NCBI RefSeq assembly: GCF_000181795.1
Contig: NW_003526943.1
Span: 7,585,566-7,649,565 of the forward strand
DNA from: Trichinella spiralis
Taxonomy: Eukaryota
Length of the DNA stretch: 64,000 nt
Direction: 5' to 3'
The position numbers and the translations under genes were made by a program. The notes beneath the pieces are model-generated. The model did not search any database. It had not been told where the DNA came from and worked only from the letters and a program-made list of their open reading frames with translations. Below are positions 50,435 through 53,614 of this stretch, in pieces; positions within the stretch are counted from its first letter, which is position 1; every line of letters starts with the position of its first letter.

Positions 50435-52500
50435 TCAGCAAACATATGATTCCTTAGATGCACCGAATTGAATTTAACAAGCAGGCCTTGTTGGTCTGCT
50501 ATATTTCCACAACAAAATACAACGAAAATTACCGAAATATCACAGTTATTCTTCCCTTAACCAATAATACAGTATAATACAGTAAGCATATTGATAATAA
50601 AGTTACAACTCAAACAAAATAAAACAAATTTCAGATGTAAAGTTTGAAATAACGAGAAAATAAAAAATAATAAAGCATTTAATAAATAAAAACAATTTTT
50701 ATATTTATGGTATTCTGATTTCAAAGAAAATTCATGCGTAAAATGAAAAGCTAAACAACTTCCAAGAAGCATAATAAAATTTTGTAATTTATAACCCTTT
50801 TAAAAGGTTTCATAAGTTTTTTTCTAATGAAAGGTAAGAATATTTTCATAAAAACTTTTATAAACCAATAACACTTTTTCTATACATTAAAATGTGATGA
50901 ATACAGCATTTTAATGATTTAAAAACCATTTCACTAATACATGAAACAGAAAAGAATAACTTTCATGATTGTTTTACTGCACTAAAAATAAGGTTTTTTC
51001 CGTTTCAATAGTATGCCGAAGTGAAAAGAATAATGTCCTATTGCCTCTTAACCTCATTGTTTTTAAAACAAACTCGAAACTTAAAACCAATGAAAATGAA
51101 AATGAAATAAAATGATAATAAGAATAAGTGATATAATAACAGTAACATAAATTTCATTTCTTAGAGCTGTTTCGAATCGAATCGAAAATTCAAGAAACTT
51201 TCTTGATAAAGTAATTATTTACAGTTCTCATAAGTTCCTAAAACTGATTCTATACTTTACTGGTAGAATGTTTTAAAACTTTTCAGCATTATATTATAAC
51301 ATAACAAAATATTATAATGAAACTATGGTTGTATGCTGTAATGACCTGCAATAATAAAGTTGGTTAACATATCCCAAGCAAGGCAAATATTAAACTGTGT
51401 TATTTTTCAGTTGAAAATATTAAGATTTGAAACAACTGAAATTCGGTTTTTTCGTATTGCTAATATTTTTAGTATAAATTATTTTTAGTATTGTATGTAT
51501 ATTGTTGTAGATATAATTTAATGCGCTCTCTAATTTCAGTAAGTAGAAAAGATTTCAGCTGTGCATATACAATTTTGTATTACTTTCAAGATTTAAAGTG
51601 TCTTAAGAATTTTATGTAACTTCAAAATCTTGTACTGGGTATGGAATTTAATGTAGTTTCAGTTTTGCAATAGTTCTTATATTTAAATGCACCATTACAA
51701 AGGAAACGTTTTAGAAAAATGGCTTGCAAAATACGCAATTATGGATCAATCAACTTTTCTGTTCCGCTTATTTCTCCTGTTTTGTTCATTACAGATCATA
51801 CATTTGACTAATTTAATGAGATCTGACTACAGCACGCAAAACATTTAACTAGTCAGAATAAATTGTTGTGACGTAACTCTATTTTTATGCACAGTTTTAA
51901 ATGCAAAAATTTTCGAATTTATTAAATTAGAATATTAATTTATCATAAAATAGTATTGAAATAATTTTTTGTTTTTAAATATAACTCAATTAAAAGGTAC
52001 CTAAATTTGTTTCTTTATTAGCCTACTGTAAGTGCTCACCTACGGTGATGTGGAACTATTCGAATATGTTACAGGAGCTATTGAGCTAGCAGTGTGCGAG
52101 GGATGCGTGTGATATTGATATGACTTTTTTAAGTTGTGAAAATTACTTATTTTTGGTTTGTGAATGATCGTAAAGGTATTATTTTGTTTTAGCGTTTAAC
52201 AATAATTTAATGAATTATTACTTTGGTAGTATCGTAAAGTGTCATTTGTTACTGCTCATAAATTATATATAATGTATGCAGATTTATTTTTCTTCCTACT
52301 TATATATGTAAATTTTTATAATATATATTCATATTTTTATTCTTTTCAATTTAAAGACAAAAAGCATTAGCAATTGAATGTCGAAATGGAAAATAGAGTC
52401 GAAAGAAGATCCAGTGTAGATGGTTTGTTCTAGTCGTGTGCATGTAAGTTAGTTTTAATTAGCATTTTATTGTTTGAATTGTTATTATTTTTTAGTAGTT

Positions 52501-52563
52501 AAATATGATGACTATTTTTGCTACTTTTGAAGTATTAATGACGAAGAACAACTTACTGATTTT
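52501..52563 (+). ncRNA. Box C/D snoRNA, U24/snR24-like D' guide (LSU AGUAGCAAA)
   Basis: C box ATGATGA 52505-52511, guide TTTGCTACT, D' TTGA, C'-like ATGACGA, D box CTGA 52556-52559; intronic, 69 nt before the 3' splice site. Confidence 0.78.
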
Positions 52564-52851
52564 GTCATTTTCTTATTTTATGTTTATTCTTACTAAAAAT
52601 TTCAGAGTATAAAATTTATTTTATTTAGTTATGTAGAAATATGGAGTCGTGTGGGGAAATCGTGCAAATAAAATGCCTTATTTTGTTTGAAAATTTATAA
52701 GTAAGTAACAGCAAAAGCATTGCTTGTTGAAAGTTTTATTATTTGAAATTATATAACAGTGCTTTATTTTTTAGGCGTTTTTAACTTGTAAGTGGTAATT
52801 ATGGGGTGGCATCAGGTAAGCAGTTTTTTCTTTTTGATTTCAGTTGTAATA

Positions 52852-52925
52852 TTAAATGATGATAACAGGAATTACCGCATGAATATAATGATATCTTATT
52901 TGGCTGTTTATTATTTTCTGATAAC
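52852..52925 (+). ncRNA. Box C/D snoRNA, snR77/SNORD65-like (18S GCGGUAAUUCC)
   Basis: C box 52856-52862, guide GGAATTACCGC 52868-52878 (11-nt perfect complement to conserved 18S), D' ATGA, D box CTGA 52918-52921, short tta/taa terminal stem; 74 nt before the 3' splice site. Confidence 0.88.
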
Positions 52926-53087
52926 TTTATCTTTAAAAGCTATCATGTGCATATTTTTTAAATTTGATTTTAATTCTGCTCATGTTTGATTTTAGGTCTG
53001 AGGGAACGACTTGAACCAACTGAAATTTATTCAGAAAATGGGTAATAGATATGTTTTTTTTGAACACTTTTTGAACAAAAACTGAAC

Positions 53088-53161
53088 TAATATGATGAGA
53101 TTAGGAATTACCGGTTGAGTTAGAAATGAAAACAAACTTTTGGCTGTTATTTGCTGATATT
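53088..53161 (+). ncRNA. Box C/D snoRNA, second snR77/SNORD65-like paralog
   Basis: C box 53092-53098, guide GGAATTACCG 53104-53113, D' TTGA 53115-53118, D box CTGA 53154-53157; 67 nt before the 3' splice site. Confidence 0.88.
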
Positions 53162-53370
53162 TATTATATATTTTGTTTTATTTTTGAGGTATTTTTGTTT
53201 CTCTGTCGATAAAAAATATTTTAGGCGTTGGCTGCTGTGAAATTTCAAGCTACTGGAAGAGGAAATAAAGATCTAAACTTGTACATTAATGAGTAAAGTT
53301 GCTTTTAAGTAAGCTCATTTAAAATTATTTTGACTTGCTAAAGATTGTCTTTTAAATTTATTTTTCCTCT

Positions 53371-53443
53371 TAAACATGATGACAGTATTTGCTACTCTTA
53401 AAAATAATGAAGAATACTAAACCACGAGACAGCTGATGATTTA
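53371..53443 (+). ncRNA. Box C/D snoRNA, second U24-like paralog
   Basis: C box 53376-53382, guide TATTTGCTACT 53386-53396 (11-nt complement to LSU AGUAGCAAAUA), degenerate D' CTTA, C' ATGAAGA, D box CTGA 53433-53436; 66 nt before the 3' splice site. Confidence 0.8.
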
Positions 53444-53614
53444 ATTTTATTCAATAAGTGCACATGATTTCGTATTATCACATCTAAAGAAGAAAATTTT
53501 AGGAAAAGTTGCAGTGTGAAGAGAAAAGCCATTGTTTGATCTACTAATTTGATATTCAATGAAGAACAGTAAGAAAGCATTATTCCATAATAGAGCGGCT
53601 CTTCTTGTTTCAAG

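Follow-up and report, generated by a model that had tools for sequence, protein, structure and literature searches.

A spliced Trichinella gene that lacks a long reading frame very probably acts as host of four box C/D snoRNAs, which lie in its introns. Splicing likely releases these RNAs, and their predicted role is to direct 2'-O-methylation at three conserved rRNA nucleotides. The gene is located on the + strand of the window, a stretch of 64,000 nt from Trichinella spiralis (contig NW_003526943.1), between a U2AF65 gene and an Sm/LSm gene. The UHG-type non-coding host proposed in the initial annotation gains support from spliced contigs, the lack of a long frame and rRNA guides in the D+5 register. 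The basal nematode supposed there is correct, Trichinella belonging to clade I, and the gene may be absent from current annotation.

Structure of the probable host gene

Six GT..AG joints on the + strand were found in assembled contigs, five of them in three or four of the four probable RNA runs from three studies; these runs (X1, X2, X3 and X5) were taken as RNA by guess only, none being recorded as RNA. The contigs are unstranded and carry no information on starts or expression levels. In four further runs, every word sampled from the unspliced stretch was present. The four introns recognized initially read GT..AG, and their + strand joints occur in contigs of 4/4, 3/4, 3/4 and 3/4 probable RNA runs. 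The run of short exons described there holds for these four introns, while two introns (52701-52774 and 52176-52356) had been overlooked. The proposed span of 52040..53580 fails at its right end, as the gene continues beyond 53580 into the adjoining LSm gene. The gene is arranged as follows.

52028..52175, + strand: upstream exon or outron; one X3 contig covers 52028-52170 and joins 52352/52357 (one of four runs)
52176..52356, + strand: intron 1, 181 nt, GT..AG; joint in one of four runs
52357..52443, + strand: exon, 87 nt; whole or partial in four of four runs
52444..52628, + strand: intron 2, 185 nt, carries candidate sno1; joint in four of four runs
52629..52700, + strand: exon, 72 nt, from contigs
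52701..52774, + strand: intron 3, 74 nt, without snoRNA; joint in four of four runs
52775..52815, + strand: exon, 41 nt, from contigs
52816..52995, + strand: intron 4, 180 nt, carries candidate sno2; joint in three of four runs
52996..53041, + strand: exon, 46 nt, from contigs
53042..53224, + strand: intron 5, 183 nt, carries candidate sno3; joint in three of four runs
53225..53308, + strand: exon, 84 nt, from contigs
53309..53502, + strand: intron 6, 194 nt, carries candidate sno4; joint in three of four runs
53503..54012, + strand: last exon, with a probable 3' end from contig ends

A donor-like GTAAGT starts at 52028, and an X1 contig begins exactly at 52357; no 5' TOP start was located. 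A low-depth contig of a different run from the one with the joint spans most of intron 1 (52194-52356). Sequence comparison revealed no resemblance of intron 3 to the snoRNAs. Intron 5 is partly retained in X1, in an unspliced contig. Near intron 6, an X3 contig has a loose end that matches, with two differences, the last part of the preceding exon. Sequence variation among the near-identical samples amounts to two differences in one 84-nt exon (53225..53308, in X2 and X5) and two in intron 6 (in X2).

The two neighbours are encoded on the opposite strand.

49418..50419, - strand: U2AF65, divergent neighbour (first coding exon region); similarity search, E 3e-93
53615..54400, - strand: Sm/LSm gene, ATG 54400, intron 54071-54379, stop 53615; PF01423, E 3.9e-14

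The left neighbour had been named U2AF65, and the similarity search confirmed this. The right neighbour, initially called LSM10, is indeed an Sm/LSm protein; the subtype could not be upheld, LSm2 ranking above LSm10 in both PDB searches. The splice joint of the LSm gene was found in X3. The last exon of the host is antisense to the LSm coding exon, with a probable overlap of about 400 nt.

The exons had been described as devoid of a meaningful ORF. In agreement, the longest ATG frame of the spliced RNA before the LSm overlap comprises 31 aa, which is at chance level (matched by 1074 of 2000 shuffles; shuffle median 32). An ordinary coding host, whether encoding a micropeptide or representing an untranslated part of a neighbouring coding gene, would agree with short ATG frames of 10-31 aa in the spliced RNA and with an X1 contig extending past 54400. 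Such a host is nevertheless highly improbable: the frame lengths are those of chance, the introns read GT..AG on the + strand whereas both neighbours lie on the - strand, and host contigs of two studies stop at 54012 (X2) and 54027 (X5), just beyond a + strand AATAAA at 53984. At its far end the spliced RNA contains a 52-aa open frame, antisense to the LSm coding exon. A stop-free frame of 133 aa on the antisense of the spliced RNA (73/5000 dinucleotide shuffles) was not accepted as a gene, since the six introns would all run CT..AC in that orientation.

Box C/D motifs and probable release from the introns

The four ATGATGA…CTGA motifs reported initially are present, one per intron, at 52505-52559, 52856-52921, 53092-53157 and 53376-53436. 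The distances from the end of box D to the 3' splice site are 69, 74, 67 and 66 nt, exactly as claimed. Four motifs within 52040-53580 were obtained in 0 of 20000 dinucleotide shuffles, the maximum being three, once. Counted intron by intron, shuffles with a motif whose end lay 60-80 nt short of the intron's 3' end numbered 7, 19, 23 and 13 of 20000. Four of the six introns carry one snoRNA candidate each, and a fifth possibly contains a relic. Box C (RUGAUGA) and box D (CUGA) are perfect in all four candidates. A duplication of whole exon-intron units was considered and rejected, the exons and intron flanks being without significant resemblance.

The snoRNAs might be real and yet transcribed from small promoters of their own, as at many C. 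elegans ncRNA loci, with the surrounding spliced RNA being incidental. One study reports independent expression of intronic ncRNA loci in C. elegans, together with upstream motifs (PMC1474057). In the Trichinella gene, box C follows the 5' splice site by just 40-67 nt; the intron flanks share no sequence, so that an upstream motif common to them is not apparent; and the tight spacing of 66-74 nt to the 3' splice site would be without purpose if release did not depend on splicing. Independent promoters are therefore regarded as very unlikely, and release coupled to splicing as the preferred reading. A 40-50 nt branch-point rule for box D is given second-hand in PMC10234308. A scan for branch-point motifs yielded no match in most of the introns scanned (three of four to four of five).

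Stable terminal stems tend to mark expressed human C/D snoRNAs (PMC10234308). The terminal stems of the four candidates are negligible, with -0.6 to +0.9 kcal/mol. A terminal stem was predicted in just 25 of 47 Dictyostelium C/D RNAs, so it is not universal (PMC8817022). Minimum free energy folds of the candidates were uninformative (z -1.9 to 0.9). The Rfam comparison suggested by the initial annotation gave no match at gathering score in the whole window; it gave sub-threshold matches to SNORD24 (sno4) and snoR77Y (sno3). The best Rfam matches of sno1 and sno2 fall in other families, again below the gathering score. The candidates with scores for these two families (sno4, sno3 and sno2) were filed as putative same-target homologues, not members, of Rfam SNORD24 and snoR77Y.

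According to the established pathway, Pol II would transcribe the host, and the C/D core proteins would assemble on the individual introns in the course of splicing. Debranching of the lariat and trimming would then yield RNAs of 55-75 nt. The spliced exons are likely a by-product; their degradation by nonsense-mediated decay is suggested because the short frames end before junctions.

Predicted rRNA targets

Each candidate contains a Watson-Crick rRNA guide of 9, 11, 10 and 11 nt (sno1 to sno4) in front of a D'-like box. Such a combination of guide and box was reached in 134, 3, 23 and 5 of 5000 shuffles, respectively, and in none of 11 other C…D motif matches in the window. The D+5 bases are A, U, U and G and match the Am1449, Um578 and Gm1450 rows of a published table (Table 1, PMC8817022); the targets were read on the rDNA of other eukaryotes, not that of Trichinella, with a panel chosen with motifs overlapping the targets. 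All three sites are methylated in yeast, human and Arabidopsis (PMC8817022). The rRNA nucleotide methylated by fibrillarin would be the one that pairs with position five upstream of D'.

Two candidates are predicted to target the 28S rRNA.

52505..52559, + strand: sno1; box C 52505-11, guide 52517-25, D' TTGA 52527-30, box D 52556-59
52538-44, + strand: C'-like box of sno1, assigned by eye
53376..53436, + strand: sno4, U24/SNORD24-like; guide 53386-96, D' CTTA 53397-400, box D 53433-36

The predicted target of sno4 is the 28S G equal to yeast G1450 and human G2351, that of sno1 the 28S A equal to yeast A1449 and human A2350 (U76 site). The two RNAs are paralogues (0/1000 shuffles) and their targets are adjacent nucleotides: sno4 would mark G1450, and sno1, with its D' one base further on, would mark A1449. 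The sno1 guide is the weakest of the four and borderline at its 134/5000 shuffles; a search for a box-D target of sno1 gave none. With its whole model aligned, SNORD24 scores 29.1 bits on sno4 (E 0.026; gathering 41). Near 53421-32, sno4 keeps a weakened remnant of the box-D guide of U24 (706/5000 shuffles); extra pairing is not significant in sno4, by this value, nor in sno1 (3998/5000). Elsewhere in the window, a U76-like guide followed by CTGA at 4967 was taken as chance; it has no box C upstream and lies in a simple-repeat context.

The other two candidates point to the 18S rRNA.

52856..52921, + strand: sno2; guide 52868-78, D' ATGA 52879-82, extra-pairing element 52901-08, box D 52918-21
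53092..53157, + strand: sno3; guide 53104-13, D' TTGA 53115-18, extra-pairing element 53141-48, box D 53154-57

Both are predicted to target the 18S U equal to yeast U578 and human U627, the snR77/SNORD65 site, and would mark it redundantly. Their second element, obtained in 7/5000 (sno2) and 113/5000 (sno3) shuffles, likely pairs with rRNA just upstream. They are paralogues (0/1000 shuffles). The snoR77Y model matches sno3 with 25.8 bits (E 0.047) and sno2 with 21.9 bits; its gathering score is 52.

Intron 1 likely holds a fifth, decayed snoRNA copy.

52244..52282, + strand: likely decayed snoRNA; 11-bp guide (two G-U) before a D'-like CTCA (52255)

The register of the guide on the 28S A is that of sno1. 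A D-like CAGA has its end 74 nt from the 3' splice site; there is no intact box C. The guide was found in 5 of 10000 intron shuffles, a post hoc value, and the window's 128 kb include two other chance-like guide matches of at least 11 bp. Whole-sequence resemblance to sno4 is weak (40/1000), and Rfam gave no match for the relic. Upstream of intron 1, a U13/SNORD13 gene at 52028-52175 was tried because of a 10-nt match to 18S helix 45 (52036-45), and rejected: the duplex is no better than in shuffles (202/1000), Rfam gave no match up to E 10, and the region folds worse than shuffles.

With one such relic seemingly in intron 1, the gene could be a relic that is still spliced, with some or all of its motifs being decayed pseudogenes of snoRNAs. 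The redundancy of sno2 and sno3, the weakened box-D guide of sno4 and the sub-threshold Rfam scores would fit this explanation. Boxes C and D and the guides of 9-11 nt are perfect in all four candidates, although the paralogues have diverged elsewhere, and the two X2 differences in intron 6 both lie outside sno4, being too few for significance. General decay is the least credible of the alternatives, and the four candidates are retained as probable functional guides.

Comparison with known snoRNA hosts

Non-coding snoRNA hosts are textbook knowledge in vertebrates and flies, UHG/SNHG1 being a vertebrate example. The Trichinella gene resembles the vertebrate hosts GAS5 and SNHG29: it is spliced, lacks a long frame, and none of its introns carries more than one C/D snoRNA, placed close to the 3' splice site. 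Guides for the same sites are also encoded in human non-coding hosts, SNORD76 in GAS5 and SNORD65 in SNHG29. The Trichinella gene is far more compact, with snoRNA introns of 180-194 nt, and orthology is not expected. It carries a U24-like RNA, whereas vertebrates keep U24 in RPL7A. Unlike in vertebrate hosts, its 3' exon overlaps an LSm gene on the opposite strand. Drosophila Uhg1 is likewise non-coding and hosts several snoRNAs, with tandem paralogues distributed over different introns; its snoRNAs include U76:54Eb and several copies of U29, U31 and snR38. Its snoRNA set differs except for the U76-site guide, and it is larger (16 table rows versus four to five snoRNAs here). In flies, lncRNAs host 42% of the expressed C/D snoRNAs (PMC11014333).

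Among the snoRNAs, sno4 shares with U24/SNORD24 (RF00069) the D' guide, a CUUA-type D' box and the Gm1450/Gm2351 target; it differs in its score below gathering and in the weakened box-D guide for C1437/C2338. In yeast, U24 itself acts on the A1449 site, whose guide in human is U76 (PMC8817022). In Trichinella, its predicted guide is a recognisable U24 paralogue, sno1, in the same gene. The D' guide and the predicted 18S U of sno2 and sno3 are those of snR77/SNORD65 (HBII-135)/snoR77Y (RF01178), from which the Trichinella RNAs differ in being present in two copies and in their low scores.

Intronic snoRNAs are frequent in C. elegans, a worm of the same phylum, where 111 of 142 are nested in protein-coding genes (PMC3342880). 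A C. elegans table that excluded hosts of the biotype 'ncRNA' gives a non-coding host in only 7 of about 346 rows; a single one is intronic, and none of these hosts is shared (PMC11028025). In the literature searched, at listing level, no non-coding snoRNA host of Trichinella or another nematode was found; such a gene is therefore of interest and likely not yet described in nematodes. A broader interpretation is rather unlikely. It would see here the first multi-snoRNA non-coding host of a nematode, with clade I worms keeping the splicing-coupled snoRNA production of vertebrates and flies that C. elegans largely lacks. One gene would hold a duplication and a one-base register shift that split the job of U24 into U24- and U76-type guides, plus a dying fifth copy. 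Its spliced exons, rather than being waste, would act as cis-antisense RNA over about 400 nt of the LSm coding exon, coupling rRNA-guide output to a Sm-ring protein.

The gene adds four candidate snoRNAs missed by Rfam thresholds and, in the rRNA of a parasite, three predicted methylation sites. As a compact clade I example, it opens two questions to testing: whether nematodes inherited splicing-coupled release with an approximately 70-nt rule from their ancestor, and how U24 gives rise to U76-type guides. It is also a warning that such hosts may be common, yet unannotated, in non-model worms.

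Host gene structure and coding potential

Among 24 sequencing runs listed, 11 were guessed to be RNA; they contained 0.23-0.40 of the sampled words, against 1.00 in four runs whose kind is not stated. Splicing was read from assembled contigs of four guessed-RNA runs out of the 11 (X1, X2, X3 and X5, from three studies), whose RNA status is not on record and whose contigs give neither strand, start nor level. The four introns named in the initial annotation (introns 2, 4, 5 and 6) are absent from contigs of three or all four runs and bear GT..AG on the plus strand. Unspliced forms of introns 5 and 6 were found in one run each. 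Five of the six introns measure 180-194 nt, and the one without snoRNA-like sequence 74 nt.

Introns and candidate box C/D snoRNAs (sno1-sno4) of the host gene
52176-52356, plus strand: intron 1, GT..AG, skipped in contigs of 1/4 runs
52444-52628, plus strand: intron 2, GT..AG, skipped in 4/4 runs
52505-52559, plus strand: sno1, ATGATGA…CTGA sequence pattern
52701-52774, plus strand: intron 3, GT..AG, skipped in 4/4 runs
52816-52995, plus strand: intron 4, GT..AG, skipped in 3/4 runs
52856-52921, plus strand: sno2, same pattern
53042-53224, plus strand: intron 5, GT..AG, skipped in 3/4 runs
53092-53157, plus strand: sno3, same pattern
53309-53502, plus strand: intron 6, GT..AG, skipped in 3/4 runs
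53376-53436, plus strand: sno4, same pattern

The exons, joined up to 53600, contain no meaningful ORF, as had been claimed: the longest ATG frame is 31 aa, against a median of 32 after shuffling (31 or more in 1074 of 2000 shuffles). The antisense strand of the spliced host (window 53244-52043) contains a stop-free frame of 133 aa, a mildly unusual result (73 of 5000 dinucleotide shuffles). The frame was rejected as a gene, since its introns would be CT..AC, and is taken as chance.

Box motifs and rRNA guides

The four motifs lie exactly where first reported; from the end of box D to the intron end the distances are 69, 74, 67 and 66 nt (sno1-sno4). A single C…D match means little, because the loose pattern has 15 matches on both strands of the 64-kb window. 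The four-motif cluster arose in 0 of 20000 dinucleotide shuffles of 52040-53580, and a correctly placed motif in a given intron in only 7-23 of 20000; the clustering is not chance.

For each motif, the guide was taken as the longest stretch that is complementary to a conserved rDNA word and ends 0-1 nt before a D-like box. The target panel was drawn from 104 eukaryotic rDNA loci fetched with a 28S motif, of which the 11 also containing the 18S region were kept. The two motifs used for selection overlap the targets, and none of the 11 loci is known to be Trichinella. The 28S target stretch is also present in the Rfam LSU consensus. At L001:4115-4503, a eukaryotic LSU rRNA fragment forms the end of a viral-collection contig, probably through chimerism or carry-over from a host. 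Guides of 9 nt (sno1, 134 of 5000 shuffles), 11 nt (sno2, 3), 10 nt (sno3, 23) and 11 nt (sno4, 5) were obtained, and none by the same criterion in the window's 11 other C…D matches. In all four, 21-23 nt separate the starts of box C and the D' box. The base five before D' pairs with a 28S A in sno1, the next 28S G in sno4, and one 18S U in both sno2 and sno3. Counting from the C targeted by the U24 box-D guide, the A is 12 nt and the G 13 nt further on, as are A1449 and G1450 from C1437 in yeast. These three are U24 sites in yeast and U24 and U76 sites in human; U578/U627 is the snR77/HBII-135 site (PMC8817022 Table 1).

The Rfam search proposed initially gave no match at gathering score in the window. 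Below it, the top two matches agree with these targets in naming SNORD24 for sno4 (29.1 bits, E 0.026, whole model) and snoR77Y for sno3 (25.8 bits, E 0.047); the best sub-threshold matches of sno1 and sno2 are other C/D families.

Paralogy and a candidate fifth copy

With boxes C and D removed, the sno1-sno4 and sno2-sno3 alignments were each equalled in 0 of 1000 shuffles, and the four other pairs in 120-771; the shared guide is part of the likeness within the pairs. In sno1 the guide and D' are separated by one additional base, which shifts the register from G to A. The pattern seen in sno1 and sno4 is what would be left if U24 had been duplicated and the copies had then divided its work. 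A remnant of the U24 box-D guide in sno4 is not significant (706 of 5000 shuffles). A second element common to sno2 and sno3 pairs with the 18S stretch adjoining the main duplex on its 5' side. This pairing was equalled in 7 and 113 of 5000 shuffles, against 1759-3436 for controls, and resembles the "extra base pairing" described in PMC6124571.

Intron 1 has the length of the snoRNA introns. It carries an 11-bp guide (two G-U) before CTCA in the sno1 register, a post hoc finding equalled in 5 of 10000 shuffles (two other guide matches of at least 11 bp occur elsewhere in the window), and a CAGA ending 74 nt before the 3' splice site. Neither an intact box C nor an Rfam match was found in it. 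Judged from these motifs, the odds that it holds a decayed fifth snoRNA copy are about even. At window 4953-4970, a 12-bp complement to the sno1/sno4 28S site directly precedes CTGA, with no box C upstream, probably by chance.

Transcript ends and neighbouring genes

The X1 contig starts exactly at the acceptor, 52357, and the X3 contig at 52028, where a strong donor-like GTAAGT begins. The transcript may begin with a very short or an alternative first exon, or with a spliced leader, of which T. spiralis has 15 types (PMC7668243). The X1 start would be accounted for by a very short first exon with its end at 52027, followed by a 329-nt intron. At 52036-52051, a ten-base complement of 18S helix 45 (9/11 rDNA loci) stands right before a box-C-like GTGATGT; a U13 reading (PMC9226516) was not supported. 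Contigs from two studies end at 54012 and 54027, past AATAAA at 53984, and the X1 contig continues beyond 54400.

The flanks had been named U2AF65 and LSM10. The former was found on the left, on the minus strand. The right neighbour carries an LSM domain, and its protein shares 98% identity with entries from Trichinella britovi and T. spiralis (6/6 matches Trichinella). PDB searches ranked LSm2 first and LSm10 sixth or eighth, all as weak matches, so LSM10 is a plausible label. One X3 contig joins a minus-strand LSm junction to a loose end matching host exon 6, which indicates that the two transcripts overlap; we infer antisense overlap with about 400 nt of LSm coding exon. AATAAA/ATTAAA on the minus strand at 53445-53451, directly past the 3' end of sno4, is a possible LSm poly(A) signal, in which case the LSm 3' UTR could reach antisense into host intron 6. 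X3 shows the 309-nt LSm intron 54071-54379 removed, but X1 retains it. Over about 227 nt at this location, the X2 sequence carries 4 substitutions and a 4-nt gap relative to the window. In both X3 and X5, the U2AF65 contigs stop at 50493; a minus-strand AG lies two bases away and may be an acceptor for splicing or trans-splicing. At 50485, a 24-nt loose end in X2 resembles U2AF65 coding-region sequence.

Proposed release and comparison with known hosts

Splicing followed by debranching and trimming frees intronic snoRNAs (PMC11028025), and sno1-sno4 are predicted to leave the host introns in this way. Typical C/D snoRNP assembly acts through AQR and requires the branch point to be 40-50 nt away; in human, the majority of expressed snoRNAs are at greater distances and tend to have stable terminal stems (PMC10234308). 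The stems of sno1-sno4 are negligible, which either fits splicing-coupled assembly or points against expression.

The host works like GAS5, SNHG29 and fly Uhg1, which carry SNORD76, SNORD65 and U76:54Eb, respectively (PMC11028025 supplement). Vertebrate SNORD24 resides in RPL7A (same supplement), whereas the U24-like sno4 sits in a non-coding host. Orthology with known hosts is not claimed, because snoRNAs relocate from one host to another (PMC3511168). Of 142 C. elegans snoRNAs, 111 lie within protein-coding genes (PMC3342880). Among about 346 C. elegans rows listed in PMC11028025, "ncRNA" hosts excluded, at least seven have non-coding hosts, one of them intronic, and no such host is shared. 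Literature matches listed for Trichinella snoRNAs, nematode snoRNA hosts and Trichinella lncRNAs include no such gene, though Zemann 2006 could bear on it; PMC3212509 mentions snoRNA once, as a read class. Splicing, the absence of a long frame, boxes, spacing and complementarity to rRNA are shown here, and the UHG-type reading of the initial annotation holds. The host is a real, well-supported UHG/GAS5-type gene, of a type already known, with four assignable guides.
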